A stretch of 64,000 nt of DNA from a virus. The position numbers and the translations under genes were made by a program. Shown here one piece after another: positions 15,461 to 57,270 of this stretch. The notes under the pieces are model-generated. The model saw only the letters and a list, made by a program, of their open reading frames with translations, was not told the origin of the DNA and did no database searches. The first letter of the stretch is position 1. Every line of letters starts with the position of its first letter. Location of the stretch: IMG/VR virus record IMGVR_UViG_3300027714_000004, positions 32,001 through 96,000 of that record. One strand, 5' to 3'.

Positions 15461-15655
15461 GTGTCTGGTAACTCAGACTAGTAGTATGTTGTTCCTTCTA
15501 CGATGAGAATGAGGATTAGTTGCCTCAAATAGGAACACGACACCAAGTAGGTCGGTAACTGGTACCGTTAGTCAGAAGCGCTGGAGATCGTGCGCGTGAA
15601 TGGTTATAAAGATAGGTTATCTTTAACTAAGGTCAAGGAAGGGGTTATGGCACCA
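15461..15655 (+). ncRNA. Candidate ~195-nt multibranch structured RNA
   Basis: No ORF, closing stem, several internal hairpins, ends in ACCA. Confidence 0.55.
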
Positions 15656-15759: not shown

Positions 15760-16029
15760 ATGATGAAAGTCTTACATAATAATGTTTTAGTTACACAAGA
15801 TAAAGCAAAAGAATCCACAACAGCTAGCGGTCTGATTATCTCATCTGCAAAACCTACTGGACAAACTCCAGCCAAGGTAATTAGTATGAGTATCGAAGTT
15901 GCGTCAAAGAATACTATCGCAGCGGGTAACACCGTATACTTCGATTGGAGTAAGGCGATTGCAGTAGAACTGGACGGTATCCAGTGTGCAGTTATTGATT
16001 ATAACGACATTAAGTTGATTGTAGACTAG
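15760..16029 (+). CDS. groES: GroES-like co-chaperonin
   Basis: KVLHNNVLV..TTASGLII mobile loop, C-terminal IDYNDIKLIV. Confidence 0.85.
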   Translation: MMKVLHNNVLVTQDKAKESTTASGLIISSAKPTGQTPAKVISMSIEVASKNTIAAGNTVYFDWSKAIAVELDGIQCAVIDYNDIKLIVD

Positions 16030-16221: not shown

Positions 16222-16250
16222 TTGACAAAGAGAAGTAATTAGTGTATCAT
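16222..16250 (+). promoter_or_regulatory. Sigma70-type promoter for tRNA-Ser and the cytochrome gene
   Basis: TTGACA-17-TATCAT. Confidence 0.7.
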
Positions 16251-16263
16251 ACGTAGTTGAAAT

Positions 16264-16351
16264 GGAGAGTTGGCAGAGTGGTCGAATGCACCTGACTTGA
16301 AATCAGACGAACCGCAAGGTTCCATAGGTTCGAATCCTATACTCTCCGCCA
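16264..16351 (+). tRNA. tRNA-Ser(TGA)
   Basis: Long variable arm, loop CTTGAAA, CCA end. Confidence 0.95.
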
Positions 16352-16380
16352 TTTTATATAATACATTGATGAGATATACT

Positions 16381-17817
16381 ATGAATACTAAAGTTTTACT
16401 ATTGCTATCCTCTATATTCCTAACTGCATGTGGTGGTGACGAGTCGTCCACAACTCCTTTAGAGTCTGTTGCCAATACTCCGTCCACACCAACTGTTGCA
16501 GAACCTACGGATTTAGAGATTGCGTTAGAAGATCTCCAAGATATCATGAACGCAACGTCTCCGACTGGTTCCTATGAGGGTTATATCCTCCCAGAGAGCG
16601 ATGACTTCCTCAACATCCCCCAAGACCCCAACAACCCAATTACTGCTGAAAAAGTAGCACTAGGTAAGCTGATATACCACGAAACTGGTATCACTTCTGA
16701 TGGTCTGGGTAAGACCGATATGGATAACACGTGGTCTTGTGCGTCTTGTCACAATGGACAGAACGGGTTTAAGTCTGGTATTCGACAGGGTATTGGTGAA
16801 GGTGGTGTTGGATTCAACCATCGAACTTTTGCCGAAGGTATGGAAGAACTTGCTGATATCCAACCTGTAACATCCCCTACTGTTCTTAATACCGCATATC
16901 AAGAAGTGATGTTATGGAACGGTCAGTTCGGTAATGTTGTGGGTGGTATCGTTAATGTTGGTATTGATCCAGAGAGACACTTTACCGAAGGTACTCCTAA
17001 AGGCGAGAACTTACGTGGATTTGCAGGACTTGAAACTCAAGCACTCGCTGGTTTAGTGGTTCACCGAATGAATGCAGCAGAACCGGACTCTATACTATCT
17101 ACTAATGAGAAGTATCAGATGATGTTTGAGGCGGCATACGGAACATCACGACCGAATGATATGTTAGAGGCAGCTGCTCTTGCGATTGCCGCATACGAAC
17201 GTACTATACTTGCAAACCAAGCTCCTTTTCAAAAGATGTTACGCGGTGACGCAAATGCATTATCTTTAGAAGAAGTTGAAGGTGCGAAGGTATTCTTCGG
17301 TAAGGGTGGTTGTGCGGGTTGTCATAATGGCCCTGCGTTATCTTCACCAGTTGGTTCCTTGGCAAGTGAAGTCTTTATGACACTGGGATTCAATGACTTG
17401 GATATGTGGGAAGATACAGTTGGAGAAGTCAACCAAGCGACAAAAGAAGGTCGTGCTGGATTTACGGGTGATGAGATGGAGAAGTATGCTTTCAAAGTTC
17501 CACCACTATATAACCTCAAAGATACGAACGTGTTTGGTCATGGTGGTTCATTCACCTCTGTAGCAGATGTTGTTAGATACAAGATCATGGCAGTGGCAGA
17601 ACACTCTGAAGTCGAAAGTACAAACCTAGACCATCGTTTCGTCCCTCTGGACTTGACTGATGAAGAAGTATCTAACTTGGTGACTTTCCTAGAAGACGGT
17701 CTACATGATCCGGATTTGATGCGGTATGTTCCTGAAGAACTTCCTAGCGGTAACTGCGTAACTAACAACGATGAACAGTCTAGAGAAGAATTAGGGTGTA
17801 CCAATAATGGTCAGTAA
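16381..17817 (+). CDS. Di-heme cytochrome c peroxidase/MauG-family lipoprotein
   Basis: Lipobox FLTAC, CASCH and CAGCH, NPITAEKVALGK, MLWNG, FKVPPLYN..HGG. Confidence 0.9.
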   Translation: MNTKVLLLLSSIFLTACGGDESSTTPLESVANTPSTPTVAEPTDLEIALEDLQDIMNATSPTGSYEGYILPESDDFLNIPQDPNNPITAEKVALGKLIYHETGITSDGLGKTDMDNTWSCASCHNGQNGFKSGIRQGIGEGGVGFNHRTFAEGMEELADIQPVTSPTVLNTAYQEVMLWNGQFGNVVGGIVNVGIDPERHFTEGTPKGENLRGFAGLETQALAGLVVHRMNAAEPDSILSTNEKYQMMFEAAYGTSRPNDMLEAAALAIAAYERTILANQAPFQKMLRGDANALSLEEVEGAKVFFGKGGCAGCHNGPALSSPVGSLASEVFMTLGFNDLDMWEDTVGEVNQATKEGRAGFTGDEMEKYAFKVPPLYNLKDTNVFGHGGSFTSVADVVRYKIMAVAEHSEVESTNLDHRFVPLDLTDEEVSNLVTFLEDGLHDPDLMRYVPEELPSGNCVTNNDEQSREELGCTNNGQ

Positions 17818-17974
17818 GAACGATATCACCGGAGATGCGATTCGATCCAAAACTCTATCTCAACAAGGTAGGGACAATTGGGACAACATCTTCGGTAAGA
17901 AGGATAAGGTTGATACAATTATACCTGAAACGAAAAAAGAAATCGTTATAAATAAAGATAGTAAGAAAGTATAA
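17807..17974 (+). CDS. Small hypothetical protein (55 aa)
   Basis: MVSKNDITGDAIRSK..NWDNIFGKK, read by hand. Confidence 0.6.
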   Translation: MVSKNDITGDAIRSKTLSQQGRDNWDNIFGKKDKVDTIIPETKKEIVINKDSKKV

Positions 17975-17994
17975 ATATAATTAAGAAGTTCACT

Positions 17995-18070
17995 GGGGGT
18001 ATAGCTCAGATGGGAGAGCGTCGCCCTTGCACGGCGAAGGTCTGCGGTTCGATCCCGCATACCTCCACCA
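17995..18070 (+). tRNA. tRNA-Ala(TGC)
   Basis: Cloverleaf, loop CTTGCAC, G3:U70, CCA end. Confidence 0.96.
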
Positions 18071-18073
18071 TAT

Positions 18074-18240
18074 TCCCCACCGTACGGGGCTCGGTACTAA
18101 AGAGATGAACCACGCGCCTTTCATCGCGCACTAACTTGATAACTGCGATCTCTCATAACGTGCATGTTAAAAATGCCAAGCAGTTGAGTTAAGGTTCTCC
18201 AACCATAATAGTACCATTAAGAGCCCCGTACTCGTGGGGA
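18074..18240 (+). ncRNA. Candidate rod-shaped ncRNA with 6S-like geometry
   Basis: Nested complementary blocks, central bubble, trailing T-tract. Confidence 0.65.
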
Positions 18241-18281
18241 TCTTTTTGCCTAAAATAATGTAAAATAATTGATATAAGCCC

Positions 18282-18310
18282 TTGACAATACATTCGTATT
18301 GGGGTATAAT
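18282..18310 (+). promoter_or_regulatory. Sigma70-type promoter
   Basis: TTGACA-17-TATAAT. Confidence 0.75.
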
Positions 18311-18339
18311 ATAGTATATTAAATTGAATTGGATATATT

Positions 18340-19059
18340 ATGTTTGTACATGCTCCTGTGACCTTGACCGAAATGACTGCTGTTACTACTGACACTGGTC
18401 GTCAATACATGACACCCGAAGGTGTGAATCTACCTTCTATCACTACTGTTCTTTCTATTCTCTCTCGCGACTCCATTGCTAAATGGCGTGCTCGTGTCGG
18501 TGAGAAGGAAGCAAACCGCATCTCCTATCGCGCATCTACGCGTGGTACGTCAGTTCACGAAATCTGTGAGAAGTACGTAAACAACGATCCTGACTGGAAT
18601 AAGTACATGGCAATCAACCCTGATAATGGGGAAATGAAGATGACCAAACGTACTCCTGATTTAATCGATTCGTTCTTGAAGATGAAACCAATCCTTGACG
18701 AACGTTTGACTACTGTTTATGCTCAAGAAGCTCCACTGTACTCTACCCATCTGGGTGTTGCGGGTCGTGTGGATTGCGTTGGTATCTTCGATGGTAAGTT
18801 ATCTATCATTGACTACAAGACTGCTATGAAACCTAAACGTCTTGACTGGATCAAGAACTACTTCATGCAAGAGTCTGCATATGCGATCATGTGGGAAGAG
18901 CGTACAGGAATGCCTATCACTCAGTTGGTGACTATCATCTCTGTCGACAATCACGAACCTCAAGTATTTGTAGAACACCGTGATAACTGGGTGCGGCCAC
19001 TTCGTGATACTATTGCTCAATATAACGAAGAGAATTCCGCAAATTCATTTGACATATAA
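18340..19059 (+). CDS. PD-(D/E)xK exonuclease
   Basis: PSITTVL, RGTSVH, GRVD..IIDYKT, QESAYA. Confidence 0.85.
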   Translation: MFVHAPVTLTEMTAVTTDTGRQYMTPEGVNLPSITTVLSILSRDSIAKWRARVGEKEANRISYRASTRGTSVHEICEKYVNNDPDWNKYMAINPDNGEMKMTKRTPDLIDSFLKMKPILDERLTTVYAQEAPLYSTHLGVAGRVDCVGIFDGKLSIIDYKTAMKPKRLDWIKNYFMQESAYAIMWEERTGMPITQLVTIISVDNHEPQVFVEHRDNWVRPLRDTIAQYNEENSANSFDI

Positions 19060-34857: not shown

Positions 34858-35069
34858 AACAATTCTCTCTCTCAACTCAATTTGTACAGCTATTATAGTC
34901 CTTTTGGGAACATATTGCAAGGCATATATCATCTTTCTTTAGAACCTTTTTGCATATAGGGGGTAGGTATATAACAAAATGGTCTATATGTTATGGAAAT
35001 AAGTGTTGACATTTGTTTCATAAACAAGTATAATAGCTACATAAAGTCGAGTTGAGAGAGAGAATTGTT
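34858..35069. promoter_or_regulatory. Divergent pair of early promoter cassettes
   Basis: Minus: TTGCAA(34920)-17-TATAAT-AGCTG. Plus: TTGACA(35006)-17-TATAAT-AGCTAC. Both are followed by GAGTTGAGAGAG..TTATG. Confidence 0.85.
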
Positions 35070-35216
35070 ATGATTAAATATGTATTGAGAAACGTTGTTA
35101 ATGACCAGTTAATTAACTGTAAGATGTTTGACACTGCTGTCGATGCCATGTGGTATCGTCATACTTATCTTGAACGTGATACTGCTTGGGTTGACCATGT
35201 GGAGATTGAGAAATAA
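35070..35216 (+). CDS. Small hypothetical early protein
   Basis: 48-aa ORF after cassette. Confidence 0.6.
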   Translation: MIKYVLRNVVNDQLINCKMFDTAVDAMWYRHTYLERDTAWVDHVEIEK

Positions 35217-35221
35217 AAGCC

Positions 35222-35280
35222 TTGCTTTTTGTGAAACCCTGTGGTATAATAGCTATACAAATTGAGTTGAGAGAAAAATT
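35222..35280 (+). promoter_or_regulatory. Early promoter cassette
   Basis: TTGCTT-17-TATAATAGCTA..GAGTTGAGAGA. Confidence 0.8.
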
Positions 35281-35784
35281 ATGAAAATTGTTATCCAGAC
35301 ACAACTACGCGAGAACTATGGTGCCCATACGTGGGACGGTGAAGGTAGATGTCCTCAACACTGGAAGTGTAAGGGTGGTAACACCTACTTCGTCGACTGC
35401 ACCTTAGAAGAGGCGCAAGACCCAGGCTACTGGTGTGAGTTAGCGTCTCTCATTAATGTACGTGACGAGTACTCTGATGAGTACATAATTAGTGACGCGT
35501 TAGTGGATGCGATTGATTTCGATCCATCTAACTACCTCGAACATTGGGAGAACCCAATCTATTTGGAGAGAACCAATGGGGTTAATTGGGACGCTCAACA
35601 GATTTCTGAGTACAGTGAATACTTCCCTGCTCATGGGATTCTGAAACAGAAAGTGACTTCTTGGATGATGTTCCCAAATGGGATTATAGAACACCACTCA
35701 GTTCTAGTCGAGACATGTGAGGGTGACTGGATGAACTGGAAAGACGCAAACGAATATTACTCTAAAATGAAAGGAAATGTATAA
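35281..35784 (+). CDS. Hypothetical early protein
   Basis: ENYGAH..WKCKGGNTY. Confidence 0.75.
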   Translation: MKIVIQTQLRENYGAHTWDGEGRCPQHWKCKGGNTYFVDCTLEEAQDPGYWCELASLINVRDEYSDEYIISDALVDAIDFDPSNYLEHWENPIYLERTNGVNWDAQQISEYSEYFPAHGILKQKVTSWMMFPNGIIEHHSVLVETCEGDWMNWKDANEYYSKMKGNV

Positions 35785-36008
35785 TGAATAAGAATGGTAT
35801 GGCATATTGCGATTACATCGCACACACAATTATTAGACCAGCAATGTTAGAAGACGGATACAATGAGTGTGGGGGTGTTATCAGAGAGGTAGGTCACGTG
35901 AAGATGGATCTGGAGCCTATAGATGGGTATATGTTATCCACCGACAAGACTTTGGACGTGATAGATATGAACGGTAAGAAGTATCGAATCACGGTTGAGG
36001 AAATTTAA
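35784..36008 (+). CDS. Hypothetical protein
   Basis: Coupled ORF. Confidence 0.65.
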   Translation: MNKNGMAYCDYIAHTIIRPAMLEDGYNECGGVIREVGHVKMDLEPIDGYMLSTDKTLDVIDMNGKKYRITVEEI

Positions 36009-36011
36009 TTA

Positions 36012-36096
36012 ACTTATTTTGAAAATAAGTGTTGACAAACGTTTCGATAAGATGTATAATAGCTACATAAACTGATAATGAGAGAGAGATTTGACT
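36012..36096 (+). promoter_or_regulatory. Early promoter cassette with upstream palindrome
   Basis: ACTTATTTTGAAAATAAGT, then TTGACA-17-TATAATAGCTAC. Confidence 0.85.
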
Positions 36097-53151: not shown

Positions 53152-53240
53152 CTAGTTTCTTTGTTTGGGTCACGCTTATGCCTTGCATTCTACCCAAACC
53201 TATGAGATAATAGCTACCTAATTGATTGAGAGAGTAGATT
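53148..53240 (+). promoter_or_regulatory. Early promoter cassette with GTGACT-N14-GGTCAC site
   Basis: TTGCAT-17-GATAATAGCTACCTAATTGA. Confidence 0.8.
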
Positions 53241-53498
53241 ATGAAAGACAGAATATTCGACTATGCCAAGACTGATGATACCCAGTTCTTCTACTTTAAT
53301 CGTGTTGCAGACTGCTTCACTACCAAGATGGATTGGTATGACAATGATGACGTTGATATGATCGTTGTTGACGCAACTAATACCTCGCAAGAGACTGACA
53401 ACATTTTCTCTTTCCTCTACCAAACAGAACCTAACGCGGATCAGGTCTGGATGCGATTTGCCCAAGAATTCTACGGAGATGCATATGTCAACGCTTAG
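53241..53498 (+). CDS. Hypothetical early protein
   Basis: ORF after cassette. Confidence 0.7.
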   Translation: MKDRIFDYAKTDDTQFFYFNRVADCFTTKMDWYDNDDVDMIVVDATNTSQETDNIFSFLYQTEPNADQVWMRFAQEFYGDAYVNA

Positions 53499-53751
53499 TC
53501 TAGAAGAAGCCTGTCACTACTTGTGGCGCGAAGAGATTACGGATTGGGGTTCGTACACCTACGTCCAGAATCATATCTACATTAGTAAGGGTACCGACCT
53601 CGTAGGATTCGTTCCTCGCAGTACAGGTATCATTAAGATGTTCAATACCCCTAAGAAGTCTTGGTCAGTTGCTCGACGCAAGTTCCGCAAGTTTACCAAG
53701 AAAGATATAAAAAAGGTTATTGATATGCAAAATGGTTCTAAACAGGACTAA
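53485..53751 (+). CDS. Hypothetical protein
   Basis: GGAG RBS. Confidence 0.65.
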   Translation: MSTLSLEEACHYLWREEITDWGSYTYVQNHIYISKGTDLVGFVPRSTGIIKMFNTPKKSWSVARRKFRKFTKKDIKKVIDMQNGSKQD

Positions 53752-53769
53752 CTATTTAGCTACACGCCC

Positions 53770-53830
53770 TTGCTTTTTTAAAACAAGTATGAGATAATAG
53801 CTACCTAATTGACTGATAGAGAAATGACTT
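53770..53830 (+). promoter_or_regulatory. Early promoter cassette
   Basis: TTGCTT-17-GATAATAGCTACCTAATTGA. Confidence 0.8.
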
Positions 53831-54001
53831 ATGAAAATTATCCTTATTGATGACATAAAGAACGTTCGAAACTTCAAGTCTGGTTATGAGTTGGTCGAGT
53901 ATGAAGCAGGTACTGACCCTATGGACGGTTTCTGTCTACTGGGTTTCGATGAAGTCGGAATGTTCTGTACCAACCCTCGTTACGCTTTCCTTGGAGCTTA
54001 A
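53831..54001 (+). CDS. Small hypothetical early protein
   Basis: 56-aa ORF after cassette. Confidence 0.6.
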   Translation: MKIILIDDIKNVRNFKSGYELVEYEAGTDPMDGFCLLGFDEVGMFCTNPRYAFLGA

Positions 54002-54005
54002 TATA

Positions 54006-54680
54006 ATGTCAAACTACTTTAGTTACCCAACCTACGGTTCTGATGAACACAAATACAATCAGTACCTTGGTAACCACGTCAACAAACAAAACAAGGGTAG
54101 TCGCGGTCAGGACTCTGAACGCCAGAAGACCTACCGAGCAGAGTGGACGTTCCAGTCTAAGGTAACCAACCCTAAGTTTGCGTCTATCGATGAGGCTCAG
54201 AAGTTCGCCAAGAAGATCTATAAGTCCAAGACTTGGGTTAAGTTATGGAACAAGTCGATAGAGAATGACGTTAGTCGCATCTTCGGTGCGCAACCTAAAG
54301 TTGTCGCGATGGGTAGTCGTACGAAAAAGTTAAGTGGATTCACCGATGGATTCACTGTGACACTAGACTTGGTCACTGGTCTGAACAAGTACACCCTGTT
54401 ACACGAACTTGCGCATTGTCTTGGTCATATGCACCACGGTCGTTCGTTTCGACAATGTCTCTTGGGTCTGGTCGGTACCTTCATGGGATCTGAAGAGAAG
54501 AAGATTCTTAAAGGAGAGTTTAAGAAAGCAAAGTTGAAGTGCGGTGATGCTCGGAAACCTCAGACGTTCGAAGTCTGGATGGAGTCAAAGAAACGTATGG
54601 CTGCAATGCGAGAAGCAAACGAAAGTATGAAAGACGATATAAAGTTTTTACATAAGATGCGTAGCAAAGGTTGTATGTAA
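54006..54680 (+). CDS. HExxH zinc-metallopeptidase-like protein
   Basis: LLHELAH..HHGRSF. Confidence 0.7.
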   Translation: MSNYFSYPTYGSDEHKYNQYLGNHVNKQNKGSRGQDSERQKTYRAEWTFQSKVTNPKFASIDEAQKFAKKIYKSKTWVKLWNKSIENDVSRIFGAQPKVVAMGSRTKKLSGFTDGFTVTLDLVTGLNKYTLLHELAHCLGHMHHGRSFRQCLLGLVGTFMGSEEKKILKGEFKKAKLKCGDARKPQTFEVWMESKKRMAAMREANESMKDDIKFLHKMRSKGCM

Positions 54681-54847
54681 TGAATGAACAAATAGATACG
54701 TGCGAAGACTGTCGTATAGAAATAACCACCAAAGGTATCGAAGTTGACAGCAGTACAGGGAACTTATACCTAGAGGGAGTAGTTTTAGTGATAGTAATAG
54801 CAGTCTTATATATTGGTAAGAAACTAGTTGACAAATACATTAAATGA
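54680..54847 (+). CDS. Small membrane protein
   Basis: Coupled ORF, hydrophobic stretch. Confidence 0.55.
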   Translation: MNEQIDTCEDCRIEITTKGIEVDSSTGNLYLEGVVLVIVIAVLYIGKKLVDKYIK

Positions 54848-54961
54848 ATAGTTAGGTTTCCCTAGGTGGGGAAGGTATTACGGATATTGCTACTTATTGC
54901 TAAGTGTACTAACCCCACCATTTTTTATTCCAAATTGTTCTAAAGAAATGTGAAATAGCCC

Positions 54962-55020
54962 TTGTGTTTTCAAAAGAAGTGTGAGATAATAGCTACCTAA
55001 TTGATTGATAGAGAGTGATT
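54962..55020 (+). promoter_or_regulatory. Early promoter cassette
   Basis: TTGTGT-17-GATAATAGCTACCTAATTGA. Confidence 0.75.
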
Positions 55021-55215
55021 ATGAAAAAAGACTTCCCAACCCTTTGCGGACTCCTCGGAGCGATTCTTATGGCAATCTTTGCCTTTCACATGAATCCCGT
55101 GATCGCGATAGTTGGATTGTCTTTGTTGTCTGTTCAATCAGTTAATGCAAAGTTGTGGAACCTTGTCGCTCTGAACGCGATAAGCATTTGTGGATTTGTT
55201 ACTCAATTACTCTAA
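55021..55215 (+). CDS. Small hydrophobic membrane protein
   Basis: About 3 TM segments. Confidence 0.7.
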   Translation: MKKDFPTLCGLLGAILMAIFAFHMNPVIAIVGLSLLSVQSVNAKLWNLVALNAISICGFVTQLL

Positions 55216-55225
55216 GGAATTTATT

Positions 55226-55441
55226 ATGAATTTGATTGGTCAGAAAGTTGAAGCAAACTGGGGCGCAATGTACCCTATCGCAGAAGGTGTTGTATGCGGA
55301 CACTTCGGTAAGAATAATGTTATCATTCGATGGGAAGATGGTACCAAGAGTGAACTTGATGCCAATTCAATTCATGAACTTGGTTACCGTAGTGTGAATG
55401 GTTCACCTATCGGAGTATTCTTCGGTGAGGTCGCGGCATGA
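55226..55441 (+). CDS. Hypothetical protein
   Basis: AAGGA RBS, WGAMYP..SPIGVF. Confidence 0.7.
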   Translation: MNLIGQKVEANWGAMYPIAEGVVCGHFGKNNVIIRWEDGTKSELDANSIHELGYRSVNGSPIGVFFGEVAA

Positions 55442-55653
55442 TCGATAATATTAGTGTAGACTCTGATGGACTAATTGAACTCTATAACGGTGACAATCTC
55501 CTCGCAGCAGGTCGGTCACCACATTTCCTATCCTATGCGATACGACAACATGATGGCCCTGCTCCGGTGATTCGTACCTCGACTGCATGGCAAGAGTCTG
55601 AGATACTTGAGGAACTGGATTATATTTGGCAACAAACTTGTGAGTTACTATAA
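55438..55653 (+). CDS. Hypothetical protein
   Basis: GAGG RBS, coupled. Confidence 0.6.
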   Translation: MIDNISVDSDGLIELYNGDNLLAAGRSPHFLSYAIRQHDGPAPVIRTSTAWQESEILEELDYIWQQTCELL

Positions 55654-56066
55654 TGGATAGGGTAGTCAAACTAAACTTCGACCGTAAGGTGAGGTACCTC
55701 AAGGACAAGGATACTGAGGAGTGTCGTCGACTCTTTGAGAAGATAATGGATCACTACGGTCAGTTCCTAGAATCGCCACACGGGTGGGATCTTCGCTCTA
55801 TCGCAACGTATGAGAAGGTGGTACGCAATTGTGGACTATCGGTTAATGAGTTTCTGTCGGAGACCTTCACCATAGCAGCTCCCAAACCAAAGAAGAAGAC
55901 CGCTGTCAAGAAACCTACCGTGACCAAGAAGAAGGTTCCGGTCAAGAAACCTATTGTCAAGAAGAAACCTGTAGTGAGAAAGAAACCCACTACCGTGACC
56001 AAAAAGAAGACCTCGGTCACTAAGAAGACCCTTCCTAAGAAGAAATCGATAAAAAAGGTCGCATAG
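55653..56066 (+). CDS. Protein with histone H1-like Lys/Pro/Val/Thr tail
   Basis: KKPTVTKKKVPVKKP repeats. Confidence 0.7.
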   Translation: MDRVVKLNFDRKVRYLKDKDTEECRRLFEKIMDHYGQFLESPHGWDLRSIATYEKVVRNCGLSVNEFLSETFTIAAPKPKKKTAVKKPTVTKKKVPVKKPIVKKKPVVRKKPTTVTKKKTSVTKKTLPKKKSIKKVA

Positions 56067-56070
56067 GCCC

Positions 56071-56127
56071 TTGACATTTCCCCTCAGTATGATATAATAG
56101 CTACCTAATTGATTGAGAGAGAACGTT
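56071..56127 (+). promoter_or_regulatory. Early promoter cassette
   Basis: TTGACA-16-TATAATAGCTACCTAATTGA. Confidence 0.8.
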
Positions 56128-56538
56128 ATGAATCCAGTAAATATCGCAGGTCGCATCCGAGAGAAGAAACGCATCGAAGCGTATATCCATGCTATCGCGA
56201 AAGAGTTAGGTATTCACCGACTCTATAGCAAGGTTCTCCTTGTAACCTTCTCTACTAAACTCCCTGATGATGCCCAAGGTCTCTGCTGGGGTGACTATAA
56301 GAGTCACGCTGAGATCTCTATAGCCCGTACTTGTCAGGGTGAGGCATTCACCCTAGAAGAGATGATGCAGACCCTAGCGCACGAACTAGTTCACGCTAAA
56401 CAGTATCTTCGACGTGAACTGTGTGGTTACAGTTTTGCTTGGAAGGGACGTAAACCTCGCAACTACAAGTACGAGAACGCTCCTTGGGAGAAAGAGGCAT
56501 ACGGCCTAGAAGAAGAATTATTCAAAAAACACTGGTAA
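56128..56538 (+). CDS. HExxH zinc-metallopeptidase-like protein
   Basis: TLAHELVHAKQ..PWEKEAY. Confidence 0.75.
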   Translation: MNPVNIAGRIREKKRIEAYIHAIAKELGIHRLYSKVLLVTFSTKLPDDAQGLCWGDYKSHAEISIARTCQGEAFTLEEMMQTLAHELVHAKQYLRRELCGYSFAWKGRKPRNYKYENAPWEKEAYGLEEELFKKHW

Positions 56539-56544
56539 TAAGAT

Positions 56545-56736
56545 ATGAATCAAATAATGGAAGCGCACCAAGAACTGTTGGGTGATCTGGAACTAATCAT
56601 TGATACCCTATGCCATCCGGCTTACGAGACCTTTTCAGAAGAAGTTAAAGAGTCTATAACAAAAGAGCGCAATCGTCTGGAGATGTTACTCGAAGTTCTG
56701 GAAGAAGACCCGTTATATGAAAGGGGTTCTTTATAA
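56545..56736 (+). CDS. Hypothetical protein
   Basis: 63-aa ORF. Confidence 0.55.
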   Translation: MNQIMEAHQELLGDLELIIDTLCHPAYETFSEEVKESITKERNRLEMLLEVLEEDPLYERGSL

Positions 56737-56820
56737 CAAAATGGTCTAAAGAATATGTTGACTTTTGTTTAGGAAACAAGTATAATAGCTACATAAAGTC
56801 GAGTTGAGAGAGGAAATATT
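56732..56820 (+). promoter_or_regulatory. Early promoter cassette (near copy of the one at 35006)
   Basis: TATAACAAAATGGTCTA, TTGACT-17-TATAATAGCTACATAAAGTCGAGTTGAGAGAG. Confidence 0.85.
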
Positions 56821-57027
56821 ATGAAAGGTTTATTTGAAATAGTTTTTGGTGTTGCCGCGATGGTTGCCATTGGTTATGTCTTCGCTGCGCCGGGCATATG
56901 GGATACCCCTGATGTTCACTTCAGCAATCTGACACAAGAATGTGTGAAGGTTATCAATTACAAAACTGCTGACGTTTACAGCTGTACGAACCTTCCAGAC
57001 CTCTACACTCACGTGTGGGTGAGATAA
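56821..57027 (+). CDS. Membrane-anchored hypothetical protein
   Basis: N-terminal TM helix, two Cys. Confidence 0.65.
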   Translation: MKGLFEIVFGVAAMVAIGYVFAAPGIWDTPDVHFSNLTQECVKVINYKTADVYSCTNLPDLYTHVWVR

Positions 57028-57200
57028 TGGATATCCTACTTGAGGTTCTAGGGTGGTCTCTATTTAGTTTCCTTGCCTTCCTAATGTATATCAACCTTCA
57101 TATGGAAAACGAGAAACATGAACAAGAGAGACTTCCACTGATGTGGGAAGAAGGCGGGTTTTTGAATGATTTTTGGCAATGGCTAAAAAAGTTCAAATAA
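57027..57200 (+). CDS. Small membrane protein
   Basis: Coupled, TM helix. Confidence 0.6.
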   Translation: MDILLEVLGWSLFSFLAFLMYINLHMENEKHEQERLPLMWEEGGFLNDFWQWLKKFK

Positions 57201-57204
57201 TGCC

Positions 57205-57270
57205 TTGACTTTTGTTTCGAAAAGAAGTATAATAGGTACTTAGTTAATTGAGTTGAGAGAGAAAAAGATT
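57205..57270 (+). promoter_or_regulatory. Early promoter cassette
   Basis: TTGACT-17-TATAAT..GAGTTGAGAGAG. Confidence 0.8.

Follow-up and report, generated by a model that had tools for sequence, protein, structure and literature searches.

The window, by which we mean the whole 64,000-nucleotide stretch of viral DNA analysed here, contains seven tRNA genes, and three nucleotides past the last of them, a tRNA-Ala, begins a segment whose two ends pair into a long closing helix. What kind of RNA is encoded in this place, and what might it do for the phage? The initial annotation had likened it to 6S RNA: a plain rod with a central bubble, expressed late in infection, that would mimic an open promoter. 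We are highly confident that the segment represents a genuine, conserved, non-coding and structured RNA, whose family is absent from Rfam 15 and occurs 3' of tRNA-Ala(UGC) in uncultured marine T4-like phages. It is not a member of the 6S RNA family, and in the following we describe its structure, its relatives and its genomic setting, and weigh the functions that these features suggest.

Taken as the segment that the closing helix P1 bounds at both ends, the RNA spans 167 nt (18074-18240, + strand). Its minimum free energy (MFE) is -65.1 kcal/mol, versus -40.0 ± 4.0 kcal/mol for 200 dinucleotide shuffles of the same segment, none of which folds as well (z -6.25). The reverse strand also folds well (z -4.98), as is to be expected of a long inverted repeat. 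All helices of the initial annotation are located where it had placed them and recur in the MFE fold (Table 1), and the U-tract described there directly follows the RNA. The plain rod had to be abandoned: a side hairpin, P5, creates a three-way junction. This hairpin and a smaller one within the 33-nt apical loop (P8) had both been overlooked. Furthermore, the 5' strand of the internal loop could form a pseudoknot with positions 18148-18153 in the apical loop. At least 3-6 complementary bases are found there in every member of the main type of the family (type 1 in the following), but the apical strand never varies, and hence covariation gives no signal either way.

Table 1. Features of the RNA, of its locus and of the candidate target leaders (positions are those of the window)
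Feature	Position	Strand	Remarks
P1	18074-18080/18234-18240	+	Closing helix; 5 of 7 pairs are G-C
P2	18082-18092/18221-18231	+	Both-side changes in 10 of 11 pairs (37-sequence alignment)
P3	18093-18099/18209-18215	+	Both-side changes in 3 of 5 pairs (37-sequence alignment)
P1-P3, 5' strands	18074-18099	+	Pair with 18209-18240; rod of ~25 bp with small bulges; P2 and P3 cells 97-100% paired
Internal loop ('bubble')	18100-18106 x 18198-18208	+	In MFE fold
Internal loop, 5' strand	18100-18106	+	Purine-rich, AGAG-type; 5-10 nt in the family, always with an AGAG, GAGA or AGAU core
Internal loop, 3' strand	18198-18208	+	12-14 nt in 34 of 37 sequences; ACC(R)A and CAU(A)AA partly conserved
P4	18107-18111/18193-18197	+	Opens into three-way junction; both-side changes in 4 of 5 pairs
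P5 side hairpin	18114-18129	+	Invariant GCGC/GCGC stem, variable loop; absent from type 2
P6	18132-18136/18187-18191	+	Compensatory change in 4 of 5 pairs
P7	18141-18146/18180-18185	+	Compensatory change in 4 of 5 pairs
Apical loop	18147-18179	+	33 nt; most conserved part of the molecule
Apical-loop single strand GAUCUCUCA(N)AAC	18147-18159	+	Candidate seed or recognition site
P8 mini-hairpin GCAU/AUGC	18162-18176	+	Within apical loop; invariant stem, hence without covariation in type 1
T4-type late promoter motif TATAAATA	17970-17977	+	17 nt before tRNA-Ala
Second TATAAATA copy	17947-17954	+	Upstream of tRNA-Ala
tRNA-Ala(UGC), encoded CCA	17995-18070	+	ARAGORN; Rfam tRNA, 64.8 bits
U-rich tract UCUUUUU	18241-18247	+	Directly after P1
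Consensus sigma-70 promoter	18282-18310	+	12 of 12 hexamer matches; starts next unit
PD-(D/E)XK exonuclease gene	18340-19059	+	Pfam PDDEXK_1
Di-haem cytochrome c peroxidase/MauG homologue	16270-17817		Pfam CCP_MauG, E 1.4e-23
UUGAGAGA leader motif, candidate target	35052-35059	+	Between TATAAT box and ATG
Further UUGAGAGA leader copies, candidate targets	35267, 53226, 56113, 56804, 57253	+	TATAAT-ATG context
UUGAGAGA leader copy, candidate target	34868-34875	-	TATAAT-ATG context

Relatives of the RNA were collected by scans with exact core patterns, which returned 19 and then 30 viral contigs as well as 38 metagenome contigs, and with a covariance model (R1) for which ten sequences and a structure drawn by hand were used. 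The R1 scores of 50 loci, 37 of them distinct, range over 75-171 bits, and the family comprises at least these 37 sequences from marine viral and metagenome contigs. Covariation in related phages, which the initial annotation had proposed as a check, is found throughout the fold: across the 37 distinct sequences, 29 of the 47 pairs show changes on both sides and 93% of the pair cells are canonical, compared to 31-46% when the partners are slid by 1-3 columns. None of 500 shuffles reaches the observed values, with the proviso that the alignment was fitted to R1 and somewhat favours the structure. An independent MAFFT/RNAalifold analysis of ten sequences recovers 13 compensatory pairs. Within the cleanly aligned pairs, G-U cells outnumber A-C cells by 42 to 20, and 14 of those A-C cells belong to a single misaligned terminal pair; we place the RNA on the + strand because of this excess, the fusion to the tRNA and the U-tract, which together disfavour an RNA on the reverse strand. 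Members measure 154-188 nt from the first to the last paired base, some of them carry an extra hairpin on the 3' side after P7, and the family as a whole falls into three clades and a diverged sister type. This natural variation is sufficient to define both the fold and an invariant working surface.

Many of the homologous contigs originate from Tara Oceans and other marine assemblies. Among 50,697 GenBank phage records searched with blastn, the RNA is present in phage C48C1 (OQ984149) only, in the same arrangement as in the window. A 32-aa 'hypothetical protein' is annotated there over the 3' half of the RNA, and compensatory stem changes and frame-breaking hairpin insertions oppose this coding interpretation. 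In a set of 185,579 prokaryote genomes, the sole exact core match lies on a 3.9-kb contig (L127, CAZRAY010000083.1) of a metagenome-assembled genome labelled uncultured Piscirickettsiaceae; the contig probably represents phage DNA that was binned with this genome, and it hints only weakly, if at all, at the host.

The family does not correspond to any RNA that we compared it with. Rfam 15 yields tRNAs and noise only, at gathering as well as at permissive thresholds, which disposes of the concern that the RNA might belong to another known family, and its presence as a single copy in the 145-kb genome rules out a miniature inverted-repeat element, the other possibility that the initial annotation had kept in mind. 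A tmRNA was considered as well: ARAGORN finds none, and a 14.8-bit match to tmRNA_permuted (18043-18092) is mostly accounted for by the 3' end of the true tRNA together with the RNA's first bases. Y RNAs such as YrlA, some of which are phage-encoded, likewise have ends that pair into a long stem bearing a structured effector module. The search returns no Rfam Y RNA match, and no TROVE/Ro60 gene occurs near the RNA or anywhere in the genome, while the control genomes score positive. Lastly, we found no mention of this RNA in the literature on C48C1, on phage-encoded 6S-like RNAs or on T4 species 1 RNA. The family extends the small set of structured RNAs described from phages by a new, solidly supported motif.

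Its genomic setting is conserved as well, in the order of a TATAAATA late promoter, tRNA-Ala(UGC), the RNA, a U-rich tail and a consensus sigma-70 promoter. Among 42 distinct loci, tRNA-Ala(UGC) lies directly upstream of the RNA in 40, the exceptions being a truncated locus and a tRNA with a deletion, and an exact TATAAATA precedes the tRNA by at most 73 nt, mostly by 7-28 nt, in 39. In the window, TATAAATA occurs 13 times with 4.1 copies expected, and 12 of these are on the + (coding) strand. The two upstream motifs had already been noted in the initial annotation; the copy at 17970 is as described, and the other starts at 17947 rather than at 17948. Late expression, as proposed there, and in one transcript with tRNA-Ala, is well in line with the recurrence of the late promoter and with a gp55 homologue in the phage genome. 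The unit can also be reached by read-through from an early promoter at 16222-16250. At the other end, the GC-rich stem of P1 runs immediately into the U-tract, and by its sequence this combination resembles an intrinsic terminator. About half of the family has a GGGGAUCUUUUU-like tail and the rest a weaker AUUCUUAU. The tail is followed 10-45 nt past the RNA by a TTGAC -35 element in nearly all of the 42 loci.

In a complete 149-kb relative (G005, locus L107), both the RNA and tRNA-Ala are missing, and the genome has only two tRNAs, both for Arg; the two elements therefore travel as a module. The exonuclease gene downstream is a looser neighbour, as 35 of 80 exonuclease loci adjoin the RNA and 45 do not. 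Neither this gene nor the peroxidase/MauG gene looks like a partner of the RNA.

The phage itself is to be classed as T4-like, judging by the homologues that tblastn with T4 proteins finds in its genome, i.e. gp55 (the late sigma factor), gp45, gp44, gp46, gp47 and RegA (52% identity). By the neighbouring exonuclease, its nearest cultured relatives are T4-like cyanophages, at about 44% identity. AsiA and MotA are not detectable in its own genome, in the complete C48C1 genome or in a 91%-complete relative, while the T4 positive control is detected.

Within this phage group, the closest analogues of the RNA are rnaD and rnaC of T4 (species 2 and species 1 RNA), albeit by position only. In T4, tRNA-Arg precedes rnaD and then rnaC, with spacings of 1 and 6 nt. 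These are small stable RNAs of 119-139 nt; like the RNA described here, they share their strand with a T4-type tRNA cluster and directly follow its last tRNA. We reject homology, given that R1 has no match in the T4 tRNA region at E≤1 and that the predicted folds differ: rnaC features a T-arm-like hairpin and the fold of rnaD does not surpass that of its shuffles, whereas the RNA has its own late promoter and a three-way-junction architecture. To our knowledge, no function has been assigned to the T4 species 1 and 2 RNAs for some fifty years. A second, unrelated and much better conserved family in their place, in abundant marine T4-like phages, offers testable hypotheses for tRNA-linked phage RNAs: an exposed 9-nt seed, defined early leaders and a late promoter.

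Further information comes from the diverged sister type (type 2). In eleven loci, the same position is taken by RNAs that score only 27-44 bits with R1 and fold just as well (z -5.9 and -6.5); one group of these loci has a different upstream tRNA, tRNA-Asp(GUC) as read by eye. Type 2 RNAs have no blastn match in GenBank phage records, and a loose type 2 pattern gave mostly chance matches and no new members. They retain the long closing rod and, in the apical loop, both the small hairpin and UCUCUCAA on the 5' side. The pair that flanks this hairpin changes from U-A to C-G, and the hairpin loop varies. The GCGC side hairpin and the pseudoknot complementarity are absent, and a one-sided 3' bulge replaces the two-sided loop of type 1. 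The apical module is thus kept and the 'bubble' is not, and any function common to both types therefore resides in the apical module, a placement that holds only if types 1 and 2 share a function.

The apical loop of 31-34 nt displays GAUCUCUCA on its 5' strand, which is unchanged in 37 of 37 sequences and has a mean predicted unpaired probability of 0.74. It is a conserved single strand, as a seed would be, and it is complementary to UUGAGAGA, which several early leaders contain where translation starts. The window has 10 copies of UUGAGAGA, with 3.9 expected and none of 100 shuffles as high; in the genomes of relatives, its total counts do not exceed those of a reversed-pattern control, and only its position in start regions is unusual. 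For seven copies in the genome, a TATAAT box precedes the motif by about 20 nt and an ATG follows it at a distance of 5-12 nt, and the same leader context is found in C48C1 and in a 151-kb relative. The downstream reading frames encode small proteins of unknown function, as is typical of T4-type early genes. Within the 25 nt that precede predicted start codons of the phage's own genome, TGAGAGA ranks among the five most frequent 7-mers; in C48C1 and in the 151-kb relative (G001), the motif is not one of the top upstream 7-mers.

We compared the loop's duplexes of -9 kcal/mol or better with start regions to those of 200 composition-matched permutations of the loop in each genome. Among genomes with the RNA, 4 of 200 permutations do as well in the phage's own genome, 2 of 200 in C48C1 and 17 of 200 in G001, which is not significant alone; in G005, from which the RNA is absent, 39 of 200 do. 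The comparison favours the genomes with the RNA, in which the loop forms more such duplexes than the permutations; it is a modest test, and its three positive genomes have homologous leaders in common. The duplexes are short (7-8 bp, -10 to -13 kcal/mol), and with A, U, C or no base at the ninth loop position in different members, the window's own RNA pairs over 7 bp only. UUGAGAGA leaders also occur in related phages that have no such RNA, and they are present in related phages of the group of G005. Moreover, UUGAGAGA may simply be a purine-rich ribosome-binding motif, one to which any pyrimidine-rich loop would be complementary.

As a separate observation on these leaders, the regions 34868-36085 and 53226-57260 contain a repeated early promoter-leader cassette that consists of a TATAAT box, a conserved leader ending in GAGUUGAGAGAG and AUUAUG-type starts. 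The latter resemble the RegA operators of T4, and the cassette precedes small open reading frames of unknown function.

The 5' end of the RNA is probably set by maturation of the tRNA 3' end and its 3' end by termination, and the 25-bp rod probably protects a stable RNA, as in the T4 species 1 and 2 RNAs. The specific mechanism that we favour for the RNA, tentatively and with considerable room for doubt, is that of a late anti-leader riboregulator, whose invariant loop would mask the ribosome-binding regions of early messages. Its working part would be the invariant and exposed GAUCUCUCA(A) strand, displayed on the apical arm. Acting in trans, this strand would pair with UUGAGAGA, which in a set of early leaders driven by sigma-70 is found 5-12 nt ahead of the AUG. 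Accumulation of the RNA from the late promoter would mask these ribosome-binding regions and turn early proteins down, while the internal loop, with its purine-rich 5' strand, may cover the seed or engage it in a pseudoknot. Such an RNA would be the counterpart of the RegA/RegB shut-off in T4. Comparable pathways exist elsewhere: 3'ETS-leuZ of E. coli and C4 of phages P1 and P7 are regulatory RNAs that are freed from a longer transcript by the tRNA-processing machinery, end in an intrinsic terminator and act by short base-pairing, which in the case of C4 covers a ribosome-binding site. Both are much smaller and less structured and have no counterpart of the ~150-nt scaffold, and the pairing of the RNA described here is a predicted one only. 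The early shut-off regulators of T4-type phages are the proteins RegA and RegB; if the RNA indeed worked as outlined, it would constitute an RNA-based early-to-late translational switch, a regulator class not known in these phages. Two points count against this: to judge from its homologue, RegA is already present for early shut-off, and by analogy a long covarying scaffold with a three-way junction appears more typical of protein-binding RNAs than of seed-type sRNAs.

The latter point leads to a possibility that we regard as about equally likely, namely that the RNA binds a protein other than RNA polymerase. The apical strand with its hairpin, and the partly conserved internal loop, might be recognised by a protein of the host or the phage, for instance an RNase, a chaperone, a translation factor or a defence sensor, for which the RNA would serve as a scaffold or decoy, the rod providing stability only. 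The long helices with their covariation, the three-way junction, the tolerance of hairpin insertions and the loop of invariant sequence make up an architecture of the ribonucleoprotein type, and the apical module is the only part shared with the type 2 RNAs. A partner is harder to name: no partner gene co-occurs with the RNA, its neighbours being a di-haem peroxidase and an exonuclease that stands without it in 45 of 80 loci, a TROVE/Ro60 gene is lacking, and no known protein-binding RNA family matches.

The terminator-like end of the RNA raises the further question whether all of its functions might be exerted in cis. It would then end the late tRNA-Ala transcript, protect the tRNA 3' end and separate this transcript from the next early promoter, as an elaborate terminator, insulator and processing platform with no function in trans. 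A GC-rich closing helix with a U-tract right before a strong promoter in all loci, and the joint gain and loss of RNA and tRNA-Ala, fit this well. Yet P1 alone suffices for a terminator, the U-tract is poor in about half of the family, and termination accounts neither for the 9-nt single strand and the side hairpin, both invariant, nor for ~150 nt of structure with covariation. We therefore consider a purely cis-acting element unlikely.

This brings us back to 6S RNA (RF00013), with which the RNA shares a similar length, ends that lie in a long closing helix and an internal loop in which both strands are unpaired. Cmscan with the 6S models of Rfam 15, the check suggested in the initial annotation, gives no match, neither for the window at gathering scores nor for 17900-18400 (501 nt) at E≤10. 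Unlike 6S RNA, the RNA is fused to a tRNA gene rather than being an independent gene, and its three-way junction and its large apical loop, which is invariant, are further differences. A functional analogue of 6S RNA could still have its internal loop mimic an open promoter, so as to sequester the sigma-70 holoenzyme late in infection and favour gp55-dependent late transcription. Such a role would agree with a size of 154-188 nt, with a two-sided loop of conserved size in type 1 (5-10 x 12-14 nt) next to a 25-bp helix, and with the dedicated late promoter; and in a phage that has consensus sigma-70 early promoters but neither AsiA nor MotA, an alternative way to switch off sigma-70 would be useful. 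The size and the two-sided loop of the initial proposal thus stand. Other findings count against such a decoy: besides the missing Rfam match, the distal side of the bubble carries a helix of only 5 bp before the three-way junction and no long second arm, conservation is strongest in the apical loop instead of the bubble, type 2 relatives have a one-sided bulge in its place, and the 5' strand of the internal loop may be engaged in a pseudoknot. We consider such a decoy quite improbable; if real, it would be the first phage-encoded 6S-like sigma-70 decoy, in phages without AsiA. Should either this reading or that of a riboregulator of early leaders be true, it would show how AsiA-less marine T4-like phages end their early programme.

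Very improbable, finally, is a nut- or boxA-like antitermination site, in which Nus factors would gather on a pyrimidine-rich CUCUCAA box and the short hairpin that follows, with its A-rich loop, and RNA polymerase would be modified: the sequences do show a box, a short spacer and a small hairpin in this order, which, as we take it, recalls lambda nut sites and rrn boxA, but the boxA consensus is matched only partially, the hairpin loop varies in type 2, and the site would lie inside a long rod at the end of the unit, directly before its own terminator.

The vicinity of the RNA offers several minor observations. The peroxidase/MauG gene, which is an unusual auxiliary gene for a T4-like phage, sits between tRNA-Ser and tRNA-Ala, and the tRNA region also contains a gene for a Cpn10/GroES-like co-chaperonin (15760-16029; Pfam Cpn10, E 3.6e-10), possibly the equivalent of T4 gp31. 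Before tRNA-Asp, a '195-nt multibranch RNA' had been noted at 15461-15655; with a z-score of 0.05, 104 of 200 shuffles folding as well and conservation in C48C1 limited to the tRNA-Asp part, this is probably not a structured RNA. In the subclade with RNAs that end in AUUCUUAU, an 8-bp inverted repeat (GTGACCAA...TTGGTCAC-like) is found between the RNA and the -35 element (L003:4860-4900 and relatives), which could be an operator or a second terminator. In another contig of the same phage as L003 and L056 (L048:1830-2500), the intact RNA, the promoter and the first exonuclease codons are followed by about 150 nt of unique sequence with its own sigma-70 promoter and a short terminator hairpin, and then by another copy of the RNA's 3' half, another promoter and the genuine exonuclease gene. 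The arrangement is a duplication scar with a captured small transcription unit.
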